Shown here: positions 25,163-64,000 of the stretch, one piece after another
Layout of the letters: every line of letters begins with the position of its first letter
Position numbering within the stretch: the stretch's first letter is position 1
From: a virus
DNA length: 64,000 bases
IMG/VR virus record: IMGVR_UViG_3300035137_000026
Coordinates: 96,001 to 160,000 of that record
Reading direction: 5' to 3' (one strand)
Position numbers and translations under genes: made by a program
Notes under the pieces: generated by a model
Told to the model about the DNA's origin: nothing
What the model saw: the letters and a program-made list of their open reading frames with translations, nothing else
Databases searched by the model: none

Positions 25163-25644
25163 TGGGAGCATGGCTGAAGCTATTCACTGATGGTACGCTG
25201 GAACATGGTAGTGATGAGCTGATTGCCAAGAGAGAAGCTTCGTGGACTCGTGGCCGGCTAGATGGAATAGAGAAAGTCCGACTATTCAATAGACGGCGAA
25301 CCTGTTCTTTGATTGTTCCCAACACCAACTGGCATCAGTTTGATAGATTTTCAGTTATAGTCTCAGAGGGCACACAGCAGCCCACAATTACTCATCGTGT
25401 GGTACAGGCCGAGATTCAGTCTCATCACGTAGGTCTCTACCTAGTATGCTCAGACTCTGGAGCAAATTATGCTTGGACAGTCGTTCGAGAATTAAGGGAT
25501 GCTGATAGGAATCGTTTTCACAAGAAGCTTACAGATAAACATGTAAGCCAGTGGCTCACCGTTATCTTGCCCGACCGAGATTATCCAGGTATAACCTTCT
25601 CAACTAAGGGTAAGATGAATGACAACCAGCACATATCTAAATAG
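25162..25644 (+). CDS. Hypothetical protein
   Basis: 160 aa, TAATG coupling to the upstream gene. Confidence 0.55.
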   Translation: MGAWLKLFTDGTLEHGSDELIAKREASWTRGRLDGIEKVRLFNRRRTCSLIVPNTNWHQFDRFSVIVSEGTQQPTITHRVVQAEIQSHHVGLYLVCSDSGANYAWTVVRELRDADRNRFHKKLTDKHVSQWLTVILPDRDYPGITFSTKGKMNDNQHISK

Positions 25645-27604
25645 TGTATTAAAGATCCTTCCCGCCGTTCAGGCACGGAATATTACCGATCTTCTTAATG
25701 AGTTCCAAGCCGAGGGTGAGATTAAGGATGCTGACGAGTATAGAGCTAAGCTTCAAGAGCTAACTACTGCCGTCAACGATGCAAATCCTAAGCCTTCCTT
25801 CACGCAGATACGTTCTCTAATCTGGCACCTCACATCGTCTGATGCACACAACATCATGATGAGAGCTACACAGAAGGACCTATTTGCTATCTTCCAACAG
25901 GCTATTGAGCTGGGTGGCAAGGTGGACGACCATCACTTTCTTATTATGAAGAACTTAGCTGCTGATATGGAACGTGGTCTGGCTGACCAAGAAAATACTA
26001 TTCGTAGGCTTGAGTGGCTGGCCAATACATCTAATGAGTTTACGATGGCTATCGTGAATGCCTTTGTGTCGGCCTCGTTGTACAAAGTACCACGCAGCCA
26101 GACAGGTGCAGAGAATCTCTACTTCGACAACCGTACATATCAGAGTCGGACAGAAGCAGAACTTCCTAGTGCTGTTGTCTCAGAGCATGGCCAACGGCTG
26201 ATTTTGGATTCAACTAATGAACCCCAGCTGCTGCCTATCTCGGTTACAATGCACACAGACGAAAGCTCCTATGGTACACAGATTCAGACAGCAGTTAATA
26301 ACAATATTCTGAATCTAGTGGATGGCACCAGAGGAACCTTTTGGACACGCCATGTCTACTTGTCAGAAACAGTTCCCAAGGTAACAACTGTCCTTGAGTT
26401 CAATCTTGGTATGGCCCGTGACATCAATTACATGATCCTCGAGGGTGCAGCTGATACTGTGTTCAATGTCGAAAGTATTTATGGGATTGCGCCTGATGGC
26501 CATAAGATGGCTTTGCTTACAGATGTCACAGAAATTAATGGCAAAGAGCGTGTTGATTTTGACAGGACTCTGGTCCGTGGCGTCTACATTACATTCTCTA
26601 CTAACTCCTACGTGAAAGCAGATTATGTGACCGACCCCAAGTCTGCTATCTTTGATTACTTCGAAGAAGATATGATGTTTGATGAGGTAGACCTTATGGA
26701 GGCATTTGGACCACTAGCAGCCGAGGTCCTGTCGTCTAAGACTCTGGGCGATATACTTAATGTGCCTAGTGGCGACTCTGGCATGGTAGACGCCTATGTG
26801 TATCCGTTTGCACTGGACAATGTGTGGTTTGGGAATAGCCTTTATGAGGATAGTGGTATCTTTGTGTCGAAGCCTCTCAAGGGAGACAATCTTGGTGTGT
26901 GCGCCGTTCAGACAATAGAAACGACAGAGACAGATGAGGATGTGAGTAACTCTATTGAGTTTGAGATCATTAAACAGGATCTTATCCCAAAATTCGGCGA
27001 GACTAAATTTCCTATCCCTAAGCTCGGCCAGACAACAGTAGAATCCGAGCGGCTTATCCTCACAAAGAGAGAGTTGGATAGCACAATGGCTGATTCCGGT
27101 CACCTTAGGTTCTGCCCCTATGTAGATCCAGCATGGACATTTGGAGATGATCAGCCAGTTAAAGTTTATAAGAATGGAGAGCAGCTAACACTCGGAACGG
27201 ACTTCCAGATCGCTATCAAGCTGAATAGTGCTGGAGATGCTCTGTTATGGGTAGGCTCGTGGACAGCCTCGCTGTCTGATTCTACAGTCTTTGCCAACTA
27301 CACTCTAAGTCCAGCCAAAATGTGGGTCAGGATACTTGCACCAGATTCTACGGCAGTCTATACGGTGGATTACACAATCCGAACGAGTGACACGTATATC
27401 GACGATAACACAATGTGGCTTGATACAAACAAGCAAATCTTCCTGTCTGACGAGGGCAAGGTATATTTTAAAAGAGATAATCCAGATGTTACAATAAAAT
27501 CTGAGTTGTACCTGCAGATAACCCTGCGAAGAAATACGGCTTCTCAGTCTACAACTCCAAAGCTTCATGAATATGCATTGCTCGGTGCTTCATATTACAG
27601 CTAG
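25619..27604 (+). CDS. Virion structural protein with a galactose-binding/discoidin-like domain
   Basis: 661 aa; helical N-terminus, then NILNLVDGTRGTFW...LEFNLGMARDINYMIL; ends TPKLHEYAL. Confidence 0.5.
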   Translation: MTTSTYLNSVLKILPAVQARNITDLLNEFQAEGEIKDADEYRAKLQELTTAVNDANPKPSFTQIRSLIWHLTSSDAHNIMMRATQKDLFAIFQQAIELGGKVDDHHFLIMKNLAADMERGLADQENTIRRLEWLANTSNEFTMAIVNAFVSASLYKVPRSQTGAENLYFDNRTYQSRTEAELPSAVVSEHGQRLILDSTNEPQLLPISVTMHTDESSYGTQIQTAVNNNILNLVDGTRGTFWTRHVYLSETVPKVTTVLEFNLGMARDINYMILEGAADTVFNVESIYGIAPDGHKMALLTDVTEINGKERVDFDRTLVRGVYITFSTNSYVKADYVTDPKSAIFDYFEEDMMFDEVDLMEAFGPLAAEVLSSKTLGDILNVPSGDSGMVDAYVYPFALDNVWFGNSLYEDSGIFVSKPLKGDNLGVCAVQTIETTETDEDVSNSIEFEIIKQDLIPKFGETKFPIPKLGQTTVESERLILTKRELDSTMADSGHLRFCPYVDPAWTFGDDQPVKVYKNGEQLTLGTDFQIAIKLNSAGDALLWVGSWTASLSDSTVFANYTLSPAKMWVRILAPDSTAVYTVDYTIRTSDTYIDDNTMWLDTNKQIFLSDEGKVYFKRDNPDVTIKSELYLQITLRRNTASQSTTPKLHEYALLGASYYS

Positions 27605-34863: not shown

Positions 34864-36783
34864 ATGGCAGGAACAAGGCTAGATAGATCTAATAGAGGCA
34901 AGGTGTCGTTTGGCACTGGTGCTCCTAGTTCATCTACTAGAGGCAATATTTATCTAGATGAGTCGAGTGGACTCTTGTATGTGAAGTCTGGGTCAACCTG
35001 GTACGTCTGTGGTGATAAGCTGTGGAACCTCGATGGCGGTAACATCGTTAATCGGAATAATTATCCACTTAAAATAACAGCTAGCGACGACTCTGAATTT
35101 ACTCTTAGCTCTAACAGCTCCTCAGATACTAGACTCACATTGGGGTCGGTTAATGCCGGCTCTGGTAGTGCTGAGCTATATATTGGTGGGTCTGAGACAG
35201 ATGAGCTTAACATCTCTGCCGTGACCTTCTTTATGCTTGGCTCCAATTCTTCGTATCTAGGAGTCAATGACGTAACGGTTTCAGATCTAACACTTACTGT
35301 AGACTGTTCAAACAACGGTGCTGGAGATGCACACGTTAAGATTGCAGGAGACAATAGTGTATCCTTGTGGACTGGCGAAAGCGATGGCTCGACAATTGCA
35401 CTATATGTCTCTGAGGTAGGAGCCGTTGGTATTGGAGCCGATCCGGGAAACTACGGAGTGGAGAGAGGTAGCCTAATTGTTGGCGATCTTACCTCGGGAA
35501 TGGCTGGGGCTGCCCTAAACATATGCGATATTACAAGCGTAGGAAATGTCAGCACATTCCGCCGAGATAGCAATACACTCAAGATCAACGAATATACCGC
35601 AACGACTGTAACAGAGTGGTATGACGGTGACTTCCCTAGCACAAGTCTTATCTATCGGCTGGATGGATCTGGTCATCACCATGCGGTTGACGGAACTACC
35701 AACCTACCTGCTTACAGTTTCATAAACAATGTAACAGCTGGGATGTATTACAACGACACTGATACTAGGTTAGAATGGAGTATTTCAACCAACCTGTTGA
35801 TGTATCTTAATTACAATGACGGACTAAGAGTGACGCTTGGTAACGGAACGGTTAACTTTTTGATTTCTGGAAACCAGATCTTTGACTGTAGTCTTACTGA
35901 AGTTGTTGTTAATAATGGCGGGCTTGATTCAGTAGACCTCCGTGTCGAGAGTGATAATTACAACAATATGCTGCGTGTAAATGCAGAATATGACCTCGTA
36001 GCCATCAGTAAGGATGGCGGTTGGACTACTGGCGGCCCCGCCGATGCGGCTCTAAATATATGCGACCACACAATGTTGCTAGGAGATGTAATCTACGACG
36101 TAGATTTTACAGATGCTACTTACTCAACTATTTCTCGTGTTCGTGCTCTAAGCATTAAGATGATTCCAACCGGTCTTAACGCCGGGGAAGATGCCCTGAC
36201 CAACTATACATTTGGTAATGGTACCTGGTTGACGGATTGTGGACCCACAGGAACGTGGACATATTCTTCCGGCTGGGTTATTCCCGGACAGACAGGTCGT
36301 GATATTGGATGTGCCCTAATCTTCCCTCTGATTCGCACTGGTAACTGGGAGTTTAAGGTTACATTTAGTACAGTTGCTCACACCGCATCTGATGAGACAC
36401 ACATCTCTCTTGGTGTAATATCTGTCGGTAACTTTACACCATTCCATACAGTTGCGGTATGTACATCAGCTGGAATTGCTGCTCCGCAGTTCTGTACATC
36501 CAACGGCAATGGTGGCTTTAATATGCAGCAGTCGGCTGGGTCGGCTGGCAGTTTGCCAGGCACCTTCTCGCTAGGTATACGGTATGAAAATGGCTGCTTC
36601 TTCCAATGGAATAACACTACTGGATCATGGCACACAACTGCATGGTCTGGTGTATTTGGAACTTCAGGAGGATGGTCTCAGTTTGGTATCGATCATCTTT
36701 ACTTCCTTGCAAGCAGCGAGGATGTGCTACAGTCCTCAAAAGATGTAACAGTAACAAACGTATACTTCGAATATCTAAACTAA
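34864..36783 (+). CDS. Tail fibre / receptor-binding protein
   Basis: 639 aa; N-terminal FGTGAPSS...GNIYLDESSGLLYVK, fibre repeat DGTTNLPAYSF...GMY, and a beta-sandwich C-terminus. Confidence 0.65.
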   Translation: MAGTRLDRSNRGKVSFGTGAPSSSTRGNIYLDESSGLLYVKSGSTWYVCGDKLWNLDGGNIVNRNNYPLKITASDDSEFTLSSNSSSDTRLTLGSVNAGSGSAELYIGGSETDELNISAVTFFMLGSNSSYLGVNDVTVSDLTLTVDCSNNGAGDAHVKIAGDNSVSLWTGESDGSTIALYVSEVGAVGIGADPGNYGVERGSLIVGDLTSGMAGAALNICDITSVGNVSTFRRDSNTLKINEYTATTVTEWYDGDFPSTSLIYRLDGSGHHHAVDGTTNLPAYSFINNVTAGMYYNDTDTRLEWSISTNLLMYLNYNDGLRVTLGNGTVNFLISGNQIFDCSLTEVVVNNGGLDSVDLRVESDNYNNMLRVNAEYDLVAISKDGGWTTGGPADAALNICDHTMLLGDVIYDVDFTDATYSTISRVRALSIKMIPTGLNAGEDALTNYTFGNGTWLTDCGPTGTWTYSSGWVIPGQTGRDIGCALIFPLIRTGNWEFKVTFSTVAHTASDETHISLGVISVGNFTPFHTVAVCTSAGIAAPQFCTSNGNGGFNMQQSAGSAGSLPGTFSLGIRYENGCFFQWNNTTGSWHTTAWSGVFGTSGGWSQFGIDHLYFLASSEDVLQSSKDVTVTNVYFEYLN

Positions 36784-56836: not shown

Positions 56837-58939
56837 CTATCTCATCCTTTTCATATTTGTTGCGACAGCCAATGCTTGCTGATAGGCCGTGTGGCTAACA
56901 TCCTCACGGGGGATGAACTCTACCAGTGTGCCGTCTTGTACCGTGAGTGTAATCGGGTGAATGTGTCCAGCCTCATTGTCCTCAGTTACTAGCTCAAGAT
57001 CATTGATAATCACCTTGATGAGTGGTGGAGAATCATCACTTTCAGGTGCCGTAACCCTAACACTCCCACTAACAATATTGACTGTGTCTTCTTCGAGGCA
57101 CTTTTCTAGCTTTCTCCACTGTCGGGGGAAGATGGTTGCTTCCATTCGGCCCGACTTGTCCTCGATGTTGACTACGGCCATGTTCATGCCACTCTTGGTC
57201 CTAATCTTTCTGATTGCTGACACAACCACTGGGATATTGATTGGCATCCCATCTTCAATTCCTTCTCCCTCCTTTAGCGCAGCAACGGTGTGTCGTGCGA
57301 GTCTAGAAAGACCAGGGTACTCGTCCATAGGATGTCCCGTCAAGTAAAATCCTAGCGTCTGACGCTCGAGCGCTAGCCTGTCTTGTCTTGAACCCTCATC
57401 TATCTCATTCATCTCCGGTAGTTGTGGCTCTTCCGGAATTTTGTATGGCTTTGGTTCTTTAAGCCGTTTTGGTTCTCTTCCCTTGGGGTTCTTCTTCCAC
57501 TTCTTGATTTTCTCGTCTCTTATGCTTTGCTTTACATCAAAGTCTATCTGGCAGGCCTTCTCCTTCTCCTTGATTTTGGCTACACGTTCTACCCATTTAG
57601 GATGTTTCTCATAATACTTATACAGCTCGTCCAGGTTTTTTACCAGTTGTCCTCTGGAGAATTCTGTTATTTCTCCAAGAGCACCACATGCTGCGAGAGC
57701 TTTAACGGTCCCCTTGTTGATCTTCCGTTGGACCATCTCTTCTAGAGACTTGAATGGCCCGTTGGTGTTCCTCTCTTCCACGAGTGCATCACAAGCTTTT
57801 GGTCCTAATCCTTTGATTCCGGCCAGTCCAAATATTATCGTTCCATTGTTGATGGTGAACATTCCCTCTGAGATATTTACATCAGGTGGCTGGATTGGAA
57901 TCTCTGCCTCTCTGCAGGCATAGATATACTTCACCAGATCCTCCTGATCCTTGAAGGATGCATTTAATAAGGCGGTATAGAACTCTGTAGGGTAATGAGT
58001 TCTTAGCCATGCTGTCTGGTACGAGATAATTGAGTAGGCAACACTGTGACTGTTACAAGTCACAATACCCTGGTCTGTTACGAAGGTATGGTTTGGCGCT
58101 GCCATTTCTACATCGTACACATTCTCCTTCCCGCAGGGTTCTATGCTACGGATGGCTACAGGTTGAGTATACAAACCACGTTCTCCCATCCTAGTCCGCC
58201 CCATGGTATAGTATGCTTTCTTATGGCAGGAGACACAGTACGTTGCGAGATTATCTAGGCTGTTGTTGCTGTGGTTTCTGTCTATGTGATGTATCTCGAG
58301 ACGCTGGTGTGTATGTTGGCAGCACTTGGCTTCACATTGGTTGGCCTTCTGGGAATTTAAAGCATATGGTATCAGGTTGCTATTTGAGTGGTGCCTTGGG
58401 TCATTAGCGGAACCTTTGTTAGTAAATCTGTATGTGGTATCTTGAGGTACATGCCCTGAGTTTATGTATAGGCGATCTTTGGGCTTTAGCTCTGCAGTAG
58501 TCTTCTCTCCATTAGTGGTCGGAAACTTGTGGTTCTCAGTGACCACAATACTGCGTCCATCTTCGGTTGTAATTCGGAATACAGATCTGGTACCTGCATA
58601 TCTAATGTCTACGATTCTATTCTTCCGTAACTTGCCGTCTTGACACATAGAGAATGCCGTCCCATATCCATATCGTCTATATCTGTAAGCTAGCGACGGT
58701 TTACCAATATTTCTAGCATATTCGGGATCGTTTGCTAGTTTGTACATCTGTTCGATGGTGGCCCGAAACTTATTTCTCTTCTGATGACCGACACGATATA
58801 ATGTTTCTTGCCCGCTTATGCATTTGTTGAAACAATTAGAGGCCACCGACCCGTTATTTAGAACAAAGTTGTGATCAGCCTCAAGGCCAATGTCGAACAC
58901 TTTCTGTTGGCCGAGGCTCTTACGGCTAATAATTTTCAT
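56837..58939 (-). CDS. dnaE: DNA polymerase III alpha (DnaE) C-terminal half: split intein C fragment, CFNK, HNH intein, C-extein
   Basis: CFNK|SHSVAYSIISYQTAWLRTHYPTEFY, IQPPDVNIS, IIFGLAGIKGLG, ERQTLGFYLTGHP, and the OB fold TKSGMNMAVVNIEDKSG. Confidence 0.93.
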   Translation of the reverse strand: MKIISRKSLGQQKVFDIGLEADHNFVLNNGSVASNCFNKCISGQETLYRVGHQKRNKFRATIEQMYKLANDPEYARNIGKPSLAYRYRRYGYGTAFSMCQDGKLRKNRIVDIRYAGTRSVFRITTEDGRSIVVTENHKFPTTNGEKTTAELKPKDRLYINSGHVPQDTTYRFTNKGSANDPRHHSNSNLIPYALNSQKANQCEAKCCQHTHQRLEIHHIDRNHSNNSLDNLATYCVSCHKKAYYTMGRTRMGERGLYTQPVAIRSIEPCGKENVYDVEMAAPNHTFVTDQGIVTCNSHSVAYSIISYQTAWLRTHYPTEFYTALLNASFKDQEDLVKYIYACREAEIPIQPPDVNISEGMFTINNGTIIFGLAGIKGLGPKACDALVEERNTNGPFKSLEEMVQRKINKGTVKALAACGALGEITEFSRGQLVKNLDELYKYYEKHPKWVERVAKIKEKEKACQIDFDVKQSIRDEKIKKWKKNPKGREPKRLKEPKPYKIPEEPQLPEMNEIDEGSRQDRLALERQTLGFYLTGHPMDEYPGLSRLARHTVAALKEGEGIEDGMPINIPVVVSAIRKIRTKSGMNMAVVNIEDKSGRMEATIFPRQWRKLEKCLEEDTVNIVSGSVRVTAPESDDSPPLIKVIINDLELVTEDNEAGHIHPITLTVQDGTLVEFIPREDVSHTAYQQALAVATNMKRMR
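58052..58822 (-). mobile_element. Cis intein (257 aa) with an HNH endonuclease in DnaE
   Basis: Starts CISGQETL, block B TENH, HNH motif EIHHIDRNHSNNSLDNLATYCVSCH, block F VYDVEM, ends VTCN followed by Ser +1. Confidence 0.88.
58835..58939 (-). mobile_element. Split DnaE intein, C fragment (35 aa)
   Basis: MKIISRKSLGQQKVFDIGLEADHNFVLNNGSVASN followed by CFNK; closely resembles the cyanobacterial DnaE IntC as recalled. Confidence 0.93.
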
Positions 58940-58959
58940 GTATTTTCCTACTGGTATGC

Positions 58960-61707
58960 TCAGATGGCCCCTAGTGCCTCGCTATATATCTCAAGGTTGG
59001 CGAAAACCCCGCCTAGTTGGTCATTGCCAGACAAGAATTGACATATGTCAATTCGGTCTAGATCATCTGGTATAACAGCAGATGTGTCTTGCGCCTTGTC
59101 TGCGTCAACCATTAGTCGGACATCATCAGGTTTCCAATGTATGTATCCACGGTGTTGATTGCCGTCACAGATATTGCCATCTACCGGTAACTGCACTGAG
59201 TATGCCCCGCCAACCCGTATGTAAGTTGACAGCCTGTTACTAGCTGAAAGGTTCATGAATGTCCATATCGCATCATTGCTTGATCCACCATCGCTAAACA
59301 CAAGAAATTGCCGATAAACACTTGGGGTAAAGTCTGGCAGCATAAAGTCAAATCCACAAGTATTTCTACCTCCGCTTCCGACTCCACCAAGATTTCCATC
59401 ATCGCTCTTAAATCTTAGTTGATCCTTAGATCTCGTCTCAGCTGAAGCTCCGGTAATTATTGGTGATGTAGCATAATCATAGTTCTCACATTGTGCGTAC
59501 CAAATATAAATATCTTCTGTTACACCATCCCCTGCAAATGTGACGTCGTTATCATTTTCTGCGACAAACACACTCCAATAATGTGAAGCAGCAGTACCAG
59601 TAATTTTTAGTACCACCAAAACAAAACCATCACCCAAGTCCTCGATGTATGGCAGAGCACCATTGCCGTTTGTTCCTATAGCAACATTAGCCAAGTCGAA
59701 GTGTGCATATGCTCCTGTTATGGAGTCAACTACCTTAATCCACTCCTTGTCACCTGCTTTAAAGACTGCGCTGAATGTCCAATCGTCAGCTGTAAGCGTT
59801 ATATTTGTCCGAACGCTATGAGTATCGTTATCTACACTACAGACAACTGCATCCATTTGAATTCCTGGGCCGGGTCCATCAATGGAATCAGAGTTGATAG
59901 TACATCGTGTTTTGGTCCATACGGCATTATTAAAGTCATCGCAATACGTAAATAGATTCTGTGACTGAGGTTCTGATAGTCCTCCCTTGATGATTCTCTT
60001 CTGTGTCGGGCGGGCCACACACCGCAACGCTTCTTCTCCAGCTAGATAATATCGTCGTGGTGGAACCTTCTCTAAGGTAATCTTATCAAATTCTACGTAT
60101 CCGTCAGTACTTGCAAGTGCATATAGGAAAGGACCTCGTACAGCAGAAGCGGTATATGATACATCAAAGTACTGCCAGTCTGTGCTGGTGGTAAGATTGA
60201 AGCTAGCACTCCCAATGTTAGATACCCGAGGAGTGGTCACTCCATCGCTTCTACCGAATCCTGTTATTCTGTATCTCTCACCTGGCTCACATTGATGTAG
60301 TTGCCGTGCAAATGGGTTGGTTGTCCCATCATATGCAATTCTAAGGCACCTAGAACCATCTACTGGATCACTTTGCTTAGTGAGTACTGCATCATTCTGA
60401 GCATCCCATCTAGCAACACCGGGAAGCTCCATATCTCCATCCTCTAGATATATACGCTTTATTACGATGTTATCAAACTCTGAGTATCCAGAAGCACCCC
60501 AGTTATAAAGTCTTATATCGCCTGCGCTTGTTACGAATACCTCGTCTAACTCTTGCCACTCGTTGCTGATTGTGCCAGTCCAAATTGAGGTACCACCCCA
60601 GAGGATTCTAGGGTACCCGGAGCTGCCGTCGCCACGGGCTCTACCAGTGATACGGTATGTCTTGTTTGGTGTGAGAACCTGTTGATAGGCATACGCATTC
60701 ATTGTACCATCATAGGCTACACGTAGTACCTGTCTTACTCCATATGACTCCTTAGTCAAAATAGCATCATTCCAAGGAGTCCAGTCGGAAGTTGACTCTC
60801 TTTCCATGTCACCGTCATTAACTACATTTCCGTCCGGCTCTGCTTTGTCTACATATGCAGGATAGTTTCTGGTCTTTAGGATTGGTGCAGCAGTGCCTTT
60901 GGCTAGCTGGGGCCACTGACCCCAAAACTTTGCTGATAGTTTTGCCGCTAGATCATCTTGTACATGTGTATCAAGCCAATCTTGGCCAATCCAGGTAGCG
61001 GCATAGAGTATATCTCCATCAAATGGTTGATTAGCTACTCTTGAACCAAAGTGGAATTCATTAGCGCCATTCAGAGTGGAGTGATATGATGATACATCAA
61101 CTGCCGAACCGCTAGGTAAGCCGTTAACATATATCTGAGCATATCCATTTCTATCTACAAATACCCATGCATCGTAATACCTACCTGTAATTAGGGTGTC
61201 TGAATATATGCCTATATAGCCACTTGAGTCATGTAAGACAACACGCAGTCTATGTGATGATGTGAATGTCCATTCCCAACCAACATTGCCAGTTCTAGTT
61301 GCTAAGATAGATCGATGTGCGGAATCATCAGTACAATTGAAAATTATTCCTGATACTATATCCTCGGTCGATACCTGACCAAATGTTGCATTCCCAGCCT
61401 TATAAAAATCGCTTCCTGCTCCGGAGAAGCGTACAGAACGGTCCATTGGCCCAAGTGCTATAGATCCTTGCCGATACTCTGGCTGCGTGCCACCAGTTTG
61501 TCTAGTAAGAATTTCCCCATATTTCCAAGGAGCAAGATCAGTACTATTGGCATCTATTCCTCTATACCTGTATAGAGGAGATTTGGTTTGTCCATTGATA
61601 GTTAGAAACTCAGACAGTCGGGCTATGCCATTGATGGGCATGTCTGGCTTATCTTTGTACAGCTCAAATGTCTTGAAGGCTGATGGTCTGGAACTACGTA
61701 TGATCAT
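58960..61707 (-). CDS. Lectin-rich fibre/spike-like protein (LamG + two CBM4/9-like repeats + head-fibre-like domain + LamG-like end)
   Basis: 915 aa; QIYVNG...FDGDI (LamG); two DGDME...W...YRITG..R.DG...EFD.I repeats; GGLSEPQSQNLFTY...ITGASAETRSKD. Confidence 0.7.
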   Translation of the reverse strand: MIIRSSRPSAFKTFELYKDKPDMPINGIARLSEFLTINGQTKSPLYRYRGIDANSTDLAPWKYGEILTRQTGGTQPEYRQGSIALGPMDRSVRFSGAGSDFYKAGNATFGQVSTEDIVSGIIFNCTDDSAHRSILATRTGNVGWEWTFTSSHRLRVVLHDSSGYIGIYSDTLITGRYYDAWVFVDRNGYAQIYVNGLPSGSAVDVSSYHSTLNGANEFHFGSRVANQPFDGDILYAATWIGQDWLDTHVQDDLAAKLSAKFWGQWPQLAKGTAAPILKTRNYPAYVDKAEPDGNVVNDGDMERESTSDWTPWNDAILTKESYGVRQVLRVAYDGTMNAYAYQQVLTPNKTYRITGRARGDGSSGYPRILWGGTSIWTGTISNEWQELDEVFVTSAGDIRLYNWGASGYSEFDNIVIKRIYLEDGDMELPGVARWDAQNDAVLTKQSDPVDGSRCLRIAYDGTTNPFARQLHQCEPGERYRITGFGRSDGVTTPRVSNIGSASFNLTTSTDWQYFDVSYTASAVRGPFLYALASTDGYVEFDKITLEKVPPRRYYLAGEEALRCVARPTQKRIIKGGLSEPQSQNLFTYCDDFNNAVWTKTRCTINSDSIDGPGPGIQMDAVVCSVDNDTHSVRTNITLTADDWTFSAVFKAGDKEWIKVVDSITGAYAHFDLANVAIGTNGNGALPYIEDLGDGFVLVVLKITGTAASHYWSVFVAENDNDVTFAGDGVTEDIYIWYAQCENYDYATSPIITGASAETRSKDQLRFKSDDGNLGGVGSGGRNTCGFDFMLPDFTPSVYRQFLVFSDGGSSNDAIWTFMNLSASNRLSTYIRVGGAYSVQLPVDGNICDGNQHRGYIHWKPDDVRLMVDADKAQDTSAVIPDDLDRIDICQFLSGNDQLGGVFANLEIYSEALGAI

Positions 61708-61708
61708 T

Positions 61709-62392
61709 TTATTCTAGAACGAAAGTGCAGCTAACAGAGAGATCTTCGGCATCATTATTTGTTCCGTTAGCATCTGTTGTGATTTCTATGTCGTCATCGA
61801 TGGAGACTGCATAATCTGTATCTATATCTACTGTGGTATGCACCCAAGATGTAGAAACGTCTCGTCCTTCGTTAGAATTGGTAGTACAAACTTGAGTTCC
61901 ACCAATAGAGACGTTAACTCTTGGTTGACTGGCTCCGGTATCTGCTGAAACTACACGATGAGATATTCTGGCTAGATATGCATTTCCTAGTCTCCACTGT
62001 ATATATGTTGCTAAGTCATTTAGGACAAGATCTGTATCGGCGGCATCGGCAAATAGGCCAGGTATATTTATATCTAGCTGCTGAACACGAGAAGTAGGAC
62101 CAAACTGGATCTCGTCATCACTGACACCCAATGGATATCCAGCTATTGTTACAGTACCACTAGAATAGTCAGTAATTATTCCGTAATACCAAGTACCGCC
62201 AGATTGGCGATAACGTATTGGACGACCGACCTTAAACTTCAGCTGATTATCTGAGTCGTCTGTGACAGTGAAGCTTGATCCGGATACTCGAGTGAACGAG
62301 TTGCCACCGAACCATGCTTCTGATATAGAGAAATCACTAACAATTTCATGATAATCCAGCTCTTTAGAAAATGGATTATACTTATAGGGCAT
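61709..62392 (-). CDS. Short fibre/spike-like structural protein
   Basis: 227 aa; MPYKYNPF N-terminus and RVSGSSFTV...FKVGRPIRY resemble phage fibre modules; RBS GGAGG. Confidence 0.5.
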   Translation of the reverse strand: MPYKYNPFSKELDYHEIVSDFSISEAWFGGNSFTRVSGSSFTVTDDSDNQLKFKVGRPIRYRQSGGTWYYGIITDYSSGTVTIAGYPLGVSDDEIQFGPTSRVQQLDINIPGLFADAADTDLVLNDLATYIQWRLGNAYLARISHRVVSADTGASQPRVNVSIGGTQVCTTNSNEGRDVSTSWVHTTVDIDTDYAVSIDDDIEITTDANGTNNDAEDLSVSCTFVLE

Positions 62393-62414
62393 TCACCGCC
62401 ACCTCCACAGTTAA

Positions 62415-64000
62415 TTATAGTATTTCTGCCAGTTCATGTATAGTATACAGGCTATGATTCTCTTTGTATATGGTGTCAATATCTAGCATTGTGCCATCAA
62501 TTGTAAGGAACTTATGATCCTTGGTGGCTTGAATAACAGTCCCGTCCTCGAGGGTGTATTCAAAGGTTTCCTGCTCGCCATTATCGTGCCACTGGCTGAT
62601 GGGTTGTATGGTAATAAGGCCGTTGCTGATTGAGTAGACATTACATTCCAGTTTATTACCTACAATATCCCCAATTCTCATGGGCCCAAACTCTACTGTG
62701 AGCACCTCAGTTTCGTATGTCAGACAATATTTGGCGAAACCGGCAATATCGTCAAATAGCTTAGTAGCAATGCTCTCAGAGATACCATTTGTTATGCATC
62801 CGTTGACGAATTTCTCCCGCTCGGGCTCCATCTTCTCCCGGATCTTCTTGCCAATGATCTGCCTCATATTGTCGGCTTCGGGTAATGTATATCCAGCCAA
62901 ATCTGTACAGATCTTCATAATTTGCTCCTGGAAGCAATTATGGGAGACCACTCCATCAGCTATAAAGTACGGAAAGCTCTGGTCCTGCATCTGGATATCA
63001 TAACATTCTGCCAGTTTGGGTTCTGCTGTAAGGACGTCGAGGTCTTGTGCCTTGTATTCTACATATACTGGAAACGTATCTTGCAGGTATGAAATTCTGT
63101 ATGCTTCTTTATATACTGACAAGAAGCCTGGTATCCTCCAGACGTAGGAGTTGTTTCCCTGTGGTCTATACATCCCACTGCCATGAAGGCTACGTTGTAA
63201 CTGTTTCTTGTGAGATGGAGACTTATAGAATAGTTGCGAGCTTTTAATTAGCTGTCTTAATAGCTTTCTAGCTATAGGTGGATAATAACTATTTCCTATC
63301 CTGCACTTGTAATACTTACCGGGTAGCTTAGGAGCAATGAGGCTACAAAATGCATATCTGTCTACAATATATATGTAATTATCGGAGATACGATATGCTA
63401 TCTTCAGCGAACGCAATAAATCTCCAATGTCTAACAATAGCTTGTGAGAAACAGACCGATAGTAAATTAAGTTCTTTCCGTAGTGGCCGTCTGCGTCCCA
63501 TATTCCACGAAGTAGCTCTACCCTTGATCTTTCATTGAAGTCTCGGAACTGTGTGGGAAGTGTTTTGGTATGTGATTTACTTATCCATTGACCGACTCCA
63601 TACTGTTTATCTAGAAAATTAGTTGGTGGAGATTTTCTAGGAGCAGTATTAAATTTCGAATAAGCATACCATGCTCTTGTGTTTTGATAATATTTGGGCT
63701 CGCCGCCAAAAACTCTTGATATCTCTTCAGAAATCCATTTAGCCTGTTCCTCTGTGCTACATGTAATGGTTTTAGTCCCTGGCTTCATTTCTCCGTTTCC
63801 GATGAGAAGCCCCAATATGTAAGCCTTATCTGAAATGTCGATCAGGTTACTATTAGTTGCCCACTGACTGTATAATACAGATCCACATCGGTCGATTTGC
63901 CCAGATAATTGAGTAGATAAATTGCACTTTAGGTCTTTTGTAGCACAGTCACCATCTGTTGTAAGCCAAACGTGATCATCTGATGATTGAATTTCTTGCT
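62415..64000 (-). CDS. dnaE: DNA polymerase III alpha (DnaE) N-terminal half, truncated at the window edge: LAGLIDADG intein, 70-aa extein, split intein N fragment
   Basis: The frame is open to 64000. Extein CFQEQIMKICTDLAGYTLPEADNMRQIIGKK...LFDDIAGFAKY is the DnaE finger region. Confidence 0.9.
   Translation of the reverse strand, partial: QEIQSSDDHVWLTTDGDCATKDLKCNLSTQLSGQIDRCGSVLYSQWATNSNLIDISDKAYILGLLIGNGEMKPGTKTITCSTEEQAKWISEEISRVFGGEPKYYQNTRAWYAYSKFNTAPRKSPPTNFLDKQYGVGQWISKSHTKTLPTQFRDFNERSRVELLRGIWDADGHYGKNLIYYRSVSHKLLLDIGDLLRSLKIAYRISDNYIYIVDRYAFCSLIAPKLPGKYYKCRIGNSYYPPIARKLLRQLIKSSQLFYKSPSHKKQLQRSLHGSGMYRPQGNNSYVWRIPGFLSVYKEAYRISYLQDTFPVYVEYKAQDLDVLTAEPKLAECYDIQMQDQSFPYFIADGVVSHNCFQEQIMKICTDLAGYTLPEADNMRQIIGKKIREKMEPEREKFVNGCITNGISESIATKLFDDIAGFAKYCLTYETEVLTVEFGPMRIGDIVGNKLECNVYSISNGLITIQPISQWHDNGEQETFEYTLEDGTVIQATKDHKFLTIDGTMLDIDTIYKENHSLYTIHELAEIL
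62418..62726 (-). mobile_element. Split DnaE intein, N fragment (103 aa)
   Basis: CLTYETEVLTVEFG...QWHDNGEQETFEYTLEDG..I.ATKDHKFLT followed by a stop; near-colinear with the cyanobacterial DnaE IntN as recalled. Confidence 0.93.
62937..64000 (-). mobile_element. Cis intein with a LAGLIDADG endonuclease in DnaE (N-terminal part beyond the window)
   Basis: Block B SSDDH, AYILGLLIGNG and LLRGIWDADGH motifs, block F CYDIQM, ends VSHN followed by Cys +1. Confidence 0.88.

Follow-up and report, generated by a model that had tools for sequence, protein, structure and literature searches.

Fibre- and lectin-like genes in the gap of a split-intein DNA polymerase gene of an uncultured 198-kb phage

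The locus described here raises the question of how two genes for lectin- or fibre-like proteins come to lie between the two halves of a DNA polymerase gene, at a place where a free-standing homing endonuclease gene is the described norm (PMC2677866). The locus belongs to an uncultured phage of 198 kb, IMG/VR record IMGVR_UViG_3300035137_000026, which encodes its sole DNA polymerase, DnaE, in pieces. The record comprises 197,730 bp, has direct terminal repeats and is rated 100% complete; the window is the stretch of 64,000 nucleotides that was analysed, corresponding to bases 96001-160000 of the record, and positions are given in the numbering of the window. The answer proposed below, which is considered rather probable, is that these phages have long used the gap in their DnaE, whose halves are predicted to trans-splice, as a resident slot for a cassette of modular fibre or lectin genes.

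All genes of the locus are located on the minus strand and are read in the order DnaE piece, 227-aa open reading frame (ORF), 915-aa ORF and 700-aa ORF. The DnaE-N piece terminates at 62415, where the N-terminal intein half (IntN) is closed by a stop codon. It is followed by the 227-aa ORF (cargo gene 1, 61709-62392), by the 915-aa ORF (cargo gene 2, 58960-61707) and by the 700-aa ORF (56837-58939), which contains the C-terminal intein half (IntC) and the C-terminal part of DnaE. The spacers are 22, 1 and 20 nt long, and the gap between the dnaE halves amounts to 3.4 kb. A preceding sequence-only reading had described the two ORFs with exactly this spacing and had placed them more than 20 kb away from the structural module; both statements were borne out by the ORF map, in which the cargo genes belong to the replication module and are about 22 kb away from the end of the structural block, which is on the opposite (plus) strand and ends near 36783.

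The tight spacing suggests co-transcription only. Since the 915-aa ORF starts 1 nt past the preceding stop codon, translational coupling of the two cargo genes is likely. A strong ribosome-binding site (GGAGGTGG) was identified upstream of the 227-aa gene, and AGGAA precedes IntC. One promoter-like site overlaps the IntN stop codon, but shuffled sequence contains such sites at least as often, and the scan for terminators and promoters remained at chance level across the locus. A search for an upstream motif shared by the cargo genes, their paralogue and the structural genes revealed nothing convincing.

The two intein halves were assigned by phmmer searches against the PDB. IntN (62415..62723, 102 aa and a stop codon; CLTYETEVLTVEF...ATKDHKF, also given as CLTYETE...ATKDHKF...) matches the Npu DnaE IntN (4LX3/4QFQ) with an E value of 1e-36, and Cys1 and the TxxH block (ATKDHKF) were read directly from its residues. 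IntC (58835..58939, 35 aa, MKIISRK...VASN; with the junction written as a slash, MKIISRK...HNFVLNNGSVASN/CFN) matches Ssp DnaE (1ZDE, E 1.2e-11) and Npu IntC (4LX3_B, 5.5e-10). Here, the terminal Asn and Cys+1 are present, and the extein sequence CFNK comes next. The alignment to Ssp 1ZDE extends across the CFN extein residues, and Pfam puts the break at the end of the finger domain. The extein segment ahead of IntN, which ends in ...DDIAGFAKY (62724..62936, minus strand; Pfam DNA_pol3_finger positions 116-166), stands between a LAGLIDADG intein and IntN and is 83-92% identical on the amino acid level to the relatives L009 and L010. The C-terminal extein (56837..58057, minus strand) contains the HhH and OB-fold regions (Pfam HHH_6, E 3.7e-21; OB fold, 8.6e-9), matches PHROG 405 DNA polymerase (E 1.4e-56) and is 63-74% identical to phage relatives. 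The polymerase is cut at FAKY/CFNK, the same insertion point as the cyanobacterial site a, the PolIII-alpha site at which all known cyanobacterial inteins are split (Novikova et al. 2016, PMC4760082).

Judged by its residues, the split intein looks intact and is a close homologue of the Npu and Ssp DnaE split inteins. The DnaE halves would be joined post-translationally by the predicted protein trans-splicing, and the interruption of the gene would then cost nothing, because the polymerase protein is re-joined. No PolA, PolB or second DnaE was found in the complete genome, only the one DnaE in pieces; with no other replicative polymerase found, the pieces presumably need to be rejoined for replication with the phage's own polymerase.

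Several known systems resemble this arrangement in part. As for the cyanobacterial DnaE split inteins (Ssp PCC6803, Npu), the intein belongs to the same family, uses the same junction (Cys+1-Phe-Asn) and has halves of 102 and 35 aa. However, the cyanobacterial halves are encoded at separate loci (PMC2677866), whereas here they lie 3.4 kb apart on one strand with genes between them. In the "fractured genes" of environmental phages, all 26 loci hold a free-standing homing endonuclease in the gap, and the listed host genes include DnaE (Dassa, London, Stoddard, Schueler-Furman and Pietrokovski 2009, PMC2677866). The present locus shares with these an essential replication gene in two adjacent, co-oriented ORFs, each with a split-intein half, and coding DNA between them. 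It differs from them in that two lectin/fibre-like genes and no nuclease are found in the gap, and the DnaE insertion points of the fractured genes differ from the cyanobacterial one used here (PMC2677866). In the literature, only endonucleases were found to be reported from the gaps of natural split inteins, and no report of structural cargo was found.

The 915-aa protein is an all-beta chain consisting of a LamG-like domain, two CBM_4_9-like domains, a tail-protein-like region (about residues 577-765) and a C-terminal LamG-like domain. Matches were obtained to Pfam CBM_4_9 (E 1.4e-6) and, over residues 576-910, to PHROG 5939 "tail protein" (E 7.5e-24). In tblastn searches, minor tail or tail fibre proteins of several phages, among them Nostoc phage Nsp-JY21 and Rhodobacter phage RcapMu, aligned through their C-terminal part with residues 577-800. 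Laminin_G_3 and CBM_4_9 were identified in metagenomic homologues, one of which is located among large structural genes on a 40-kb phage contig. The AlphaFold model (pLDDT 86.8) shows an all-beta string of jelly rolls, for which the best solved Foldseek matches are proteins with tandem LamG or CBM domains.

In the 227-aa protein, which was assigned to no Pfam or PHROG family, an N-terminal motif (MPYKYNPFSKELDY) is followed by a small beta-barrel and, at the C-terminus, by a jelly-roll tip domain. Thirty homologues were identified, which share a conserved domain of about 200 residues behind very different N-terminal extensions, one of them collagen-like. The same domain forms the C-terminus of a 741-aa protein of the archaeal virus vir525, encoded in the tail module between tape measure and baseplate. 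In an unrelated phage, a homologue directly precedes a LamG protein, so that the two gap genes may form a working pair. The jelly roll of the AF2 model (pLDDT 90) resembles tail-fibre tips, capsid cement proteins, CBM6/36 and TNF/C1q domains with Z values of 7-8; the PDB matches (Z up to 8.1) are of a generic jelly-roll kind and point to no specific ligand. Tail fibre proteins are also among the fold matches in BFVD, and the ESM Atlas added nothing beyond a viral family without assigned function. The lectin- or fibre-like character that had been proposed for the two proteins from their sequences was supported by the Pfam, PHROG, tblastn and fold matches, and both share with fibre proteins the homology to proteins of phage tail modules. 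Neither protein matched a nuclease, recombinase or transposase in Pfam or PHROGs, and no nuclease or mobility domain was found. A diversity-generating retroelement was also considered and is excluded, because the genome contains no reverse transcriptase (no RVT_1) and no repeat pair; the cargo genes share no repeat with the rest of the genome save a 25-nt match at the start of a paralogue.

The N-terminal motif of the 227-aa protein recurs at the start of gap gene 1 in the close relatives. It comprises about 15 residues, MPYKYNPF..LDY, with the general form [YF]N[PVT][FI]..[LF]D[YF], and opens four gap genes (those of this genome and of L009, L010 and L022), one stub and one paralogue, all with unrelated distal parts. 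Gap gene 1 starts with MPYRYNVFTKEFDF in L009, with MLFSYNPITRRLDY in L010 and with MTYKYNTFLNKLDF in L022; behind the motif, a LamG_3 domain (E 2e-11) was identified in L022 and a weak BclA_C-like match in L010. The stub (L009:8182-8292, 36 codons, MSFKYNPFSRILDY... / MSFKYNPFSRILDYH...) lies between the IntN stop codon and the 450-aa gap gene of L009 and looks like the leftover of an earlier cassette. The paralogue, a 446-aa protein that starts with MPYKYNPFTGRLDY, is encoded outside the window on the minus strand at genome positions 25252-26592 (L014:226-1566, L137). It has a PHROG tail-protein match and a third-position GC content (GC3) of 0.38, and its gene shares the 25-nt DNA match with the start of the 227-aa gene. 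Its neighbours are tRNA genes and small unknown ORFs, the structural module being far away, and its flanks (genome 25-27 kb) gave no Pfam family and no sign of a split gene. Virion-anchored fibres are usually built from a conserved N-terminus and exchangeable distal domains, and the same build was found here. By this likeness, the motif may be a docking peptide.

Whether the gap is a site of variable content was addressed by comparison with relatives, which were collected by a protein search with the C-terminal extein and by two alignment-based IMG/VR scans. The metagenome scan yielded mostly cellular DnaE; to the cellular sequences found, the exteins of this phage's DnaE show an identity of only about 30%. 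When the 700-aa piece alone was used in a locus search, no match was obtained; a DNA search of GenBank phages with the whole locus and a protein search with the paralogue gave none either. Among cultured phages, matches to the C-terminal part of DnaE are at most 38% identical, and no cultured close relative was found. The search with the C-terminal extein revealed a clade of phage DnaE proteins with 40-74% identity, in which three kinds of loci occur. In the first kind, represented by L018, DnaE is contiguous, and the same synteny of NUDIX, dnaE, RNaseH and, further on, primase/helicase is present with no fibre gene at dnaE. In the second kind, a different split intein is inserted four codons downstream (FNK/SHS), and the gap holds a LAGLIDADG endonuclease (L016, L017) or is empty (L015); this corresponds to the classical fractured gene of Dassa et al. 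2009 (PMC2677866). The third kind carries the cyanobacterial-type split intein (this genome, L009, L010, L011 and L022). The absence of a fibre gene at the contiguous dnaE of L018, and the presence of an endonuclease or nothing in the relatives with the other intein, speak for the gap as a slot.

At least 12 other distinct phage loci with the cyanobacterial-type intein carry different cargo, ranging from 0.5 to more than 12 kb. The gap contains genes for 450 and 105 aa in L009, for 167 aa in L010, for at least 1697 aa (CBM_4_9, tailspike PHROG) and 157 aa in L011, and for 424 aa with LamG_3 in L022. L135 holds 12.2 kb with ten ORFs and tail-fibre PHROG matches, and L141, L144, L147 and L152 hold 7.7-8.4 kb with collagen-like tail fibres (E 1e-122 to 1e-150); the first two small gap genes are conserved across the clade formed by these five loci. 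In L151 and L153-L155, 2-5 kb of unknown ORFs without nuclease matches were identified, and the gap of L158 is almost empty (0.8 kb). A homing endonuclease occupies the gap of 1 kb in L032, L162 and L164 (PHROG 3339, E 3e-5; ...HGAFWH motif), so that the classical fractured form is found at this very site in the distant relative L032. No metabolic or defence genes were seen as cargo in the gaps examined. Different genes are thus found at the same site among the relatives, as the sequence-only reading had proposed for a site of swappable cargo. The site is, however, not a free-for-all. Since gap gene 1 always keeps its N-terminal motif in the close clade, the site acts like a resident locus for fibres whose distal parts can be exchanged.

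The borders of the exchanged region are sharp. DNA homology to L009 ends 7 nt past the IntN stop codon and restarts 10 nt before the IntC start. Over 24 kb of collinear replication module, the gap is the only non-homologous replacement between the two genomes (3374 vs 1622 nt), and the remaining differences are three selfish insertions specific to this genome. In the pair L144 and L147, dnaE and 10 kb downstream of it are 70-73% identical, whereas 4.2 kb inside the gap are 90% identical. The higher identity of the cargo than of the backbone is direct evidence for a recent lateral transfer of cargo between diverged phages. In this mosaic exchange between diverged genomes, and in the conserved N-terminal motif ahead of unrelated lectin-like domains, the locus resembles the hypervariable loci for tail fibres and receptor-binding proteins. 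Such loci normally lie in the tail module. The locus described here, in contrast, lies inside a polymerase gene of the replication module, and the location in a tail or structural module that characterizes tail fibre genes was not found for the cargo genes.

In composition, the cargo genes differ from their neighbours. Their GC content had been suggested to be low from a few lines of sequence; with 41.5% and 44.4% compared to 46.1% for the genome (z -1.6 and -0.7), it is indeed lower, but unremarkable. The GC3 of 0.29 and 0.35 is clearly low, compared to 0.49 +/- 0.05 for the neighbouring replication genes and 0.43 +/- 0.04 for the structural block. It leans towards the structural genes and past them, which fits late-gene usage and a foreign origin alike. 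For the cargo, the synonymous-codon score (the log-ratio of the codon choice of a gene to the synonymous codon frequencies of the whole genome) slightly exceeds the genome mean. Across the genome, GC3 is near 0.42 in the plus-strand structural block (about 63-133 kb) and about 0.49-0.55 in the minus-strand replication and accessory genes.

Taken as a slot for a fibre/lectin cassette, the locus would work as follows. The cargo would provide accessory virion proteins, such as side fibres or decoration proteins, which would be attached to the particle by their conserved N-terminus and would bind glycans of the host surface through their lectin domains. Cassettes may be replaced when co-infecting phages recombine. 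In its original form, the slot was probably a classical fractured gene with a homing endonuclease, as is still present in a distant clade, and fibre genes would have taken it over later. A more far-reaching version holds that selection has made the split-intein gap of an essential gene a "safe harbour" for genes that determine host range: the interruption would be harmless, the site could not be lost because both flanks are indispensable, fibre cassettes would be exchanged between diverged phages, and an endonuclease would have opened the site and then been displaced. This version is put forward only tentatively.

Several observations weigh against the reading as a cassette slot. No obvious trimeric shaft, coiled coil or collagen repeat was found in the 227-aa and 915-aa proteins, and the fold matches of the former are only of generic strength (Z 7-8). 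The cargo sits in a replication operon of the early or middle type, on the strand opposite to the structural genes, and a separate late promoter was not found, the promoter-like matches being at chance level. The exchange between L144 and L147 was demonstrated for phages of a sister clade, with breakpoints within the fibre genes and not at the intein flanks. For this genome itself, no recent swap is demonstrable, the flanks being only 70-76% identical to those of its nearest relatives. Finally, the gap ORFs of several relatives match no recognizable family, which leaves a cargo that is always fibre-like unproven.

Some of these observations could also be explained if the fibre genes stood at an old, fixed position after one ancient rearrangement, with the variation being ordinary fast fibre evolution and the intein merely repairing the polymerase. 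Such a history would fit the cargo being fibre-like or family-less at every locus except in the endonuclease clade, with no metabolic or defence genes seen. The conserved motif of gap gene 1 in the close clade, the two small genes conserved across the clade of L135, L141, L144, L147 and L152, and exchange breakpoints demonstrated inside fibre genes point the same way. It is, however, judged unlikely: gap lengths vary from 0.5 to more than 12 kb with unrelated protein families between clades, and the replaced region coincides within 10 nt with the interval from the IntN stop to the IntC start. The homing endonuclease in the gap of one clade and the almost empty gap of L158 further imply a repeated turnover of the whole gap content.

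Another function of the cargo is conceivable as well. Lectin-like proteins that are not virion parts could be made together with the replication genes and act on or within infected cells, for instance in superinfection exclusion, in the masking of host surface glycans or in the binding of polysaccharides in the cytoplasm. The sequence-only reading had likewise suggested that the arrangement might tie lectin expression to the timing of replication. This would agree with the co-oriented and tightly packed position of the cargo between the dnaE pieces, with no supported internal promoter or terminator, and with its location 22 kb from the structural module on the other strand. It is nevertheless regarded as improbable, given that homologues of both proteins are encoded in tail or structural modules elsewhere among phages, that a conserved N-terminal motif ahead of variable distal domains, as found here, is the usual build of virion-anchored fibres, and that GC3 is shifted towards, though past, the structural genes. 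In addition, neither N-terminus resembles a signal peptide or membrane segment by eye, no predictor having been run. That the locus is an assembly chimera or a decaying, non-functional polymerase gene might be suspected from its unusually broken state, with three ORF pieces, two cis-inteins and one split intein, and from the in-frame TGA in the free-standing LAGLIDADG gene at the first break. This suspicion has very little probability left, because the same layout was found in independent JGI, Logan, NCBI and IMG/VR assemblies, all splicing residues and extein motifs are intact, and dnaE is the only replicative polymerase gene of a record with direct terminal repeats that is rated 100% complete.

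Apart from the gap cargo, four interruptions of dnaE were mapped by comparison with the nearest relatives and by Pfam: a break by a LAGLIDADG gene, a LAGLIDADG intein, the split intein and an HNH intein. The first break is a 1.0-kb insertion beyond the end of the window, at the window-equivalent positions 65004-66007 (genome 161004-162007; L003:11004-12007), and is absent from L009 and L010. It has no intein halves and consists of a free-standing, two-motif LAGLIDADG gene with a zinc-finger-like N-terminus and the in-frame TGA. The second dnaE piece opens with a degenerate duplicate of the GSGAGSLV...PDIDIDF segment. An intron as the explanation of this break was ruled out, since no group I intron or other RNA was identified by Rfam across the whole dnaE region. 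In T4-like phages, free-standing homing endonucleases have given rise to genes in pieces, as for Aeh1 nrdA/mobE and phage 25 gene 43A/43B (PMC2988022, PMC3045599). The present case shares with these an essential phage enzyme gene that inserted DNA has split and whose product needs reassembly, and the first dnaE break looks to be of the Aeh1 type. However, the T4-like inserts are nucleases or untranslated and the products reassemble non-covalently, whereas the gap described here is bridged by a split intein and contains cargo of a structural type.

The LAGLIDADG intein is contiguous and lies in the finger domain, from 62937..64000 on to about 64169 past the window end (minus strand; Pfam LAGLIDADG_3, Hint_2), with the boundaries ...YGVM/CLPAG and VVSHN/CFQEQ; it is a 1235-nt insertion found only in this genome when compared with L009 and L010. 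The second contiguous intein (58058..58822, minus strand; CISGQ...IVTCN/SHS) was identified by Pfam (Intein_splicing, E 2.3e-9; weak HNH and HNH_3 matches) and by PHROG families of HNH endonucleases. It is inserted four codons (CFNK) past IntC, as a 771-nt insertion specific to this genome compared to L009. It occupies the FNK/SHS site at which other clade members carry the different split intein, so that two inteins stand nearly back to back. As the HNH intein adjoins the gap, a homing endonuclease is present beside the gap, not inside it. One essential gene is thereby loaded with a split intein, two cis-inteins, a break by a free-standing endonuclease gene and two cargo genes.

Comparable loads were observed in relatives. 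In L135 (G001:86001-105500), a distant phage of 124 kb, dnaE is present in at least four pieces over 18 kb; the earlier pieces are parted by small unknown ORFs and an HNH-type homing endonuclease gene on the opposite strand, and the fibre block of 12 kb lies in the split-intein gap. L015 has a ribonucleotide reductase with HNH and LAGLIDADG inteins and a RecA with a LAGLIDADG intein, and L018 has a primase-helicase with a LAGLIDADG intein; the clade is rich in inteins in other replication genes. In Rhodococcus phage Trina, the DnaE protein gp102 (L136, NC_042040.1 68795-71665) aligns with the region of IntC plus extein with 36.5% identity from residue 3. Judging from this alignment, gp102 may hold a contiguous intein at the same site, and in that case it would be a useful outgroup for the origin of the split form.

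So far, natural split inteins are known in two settings, at separate loci in cyanobacteria and in the fractured genes of phages with a selfish nuclease in the gap. In the phage described here and at the at least 12 other distinct phage loci, genes of the host-recognition type are found in the gap instead. If the reading as a resident cassette slot is true, phages would have converted the insertion site of a selfish element into a stable residence for their fastest-changing genes, and the gaps of split polymerase genes would be a new place to seek receptor-binding genes in uncultured phages, outside the tail module. The Npu-type DnaE split intein is widely used, and these loci would also add natural variants of it in which a single operon encodes both halves. 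The cyanobacterial split dnaE could have arisen from intermediates of the kind seen in these phage loci with their adjacent halves, or the reverse; the loci would then offer living intermediates for a question still open, namely how dnaE became split in cyanobacteria (PMC2677866).

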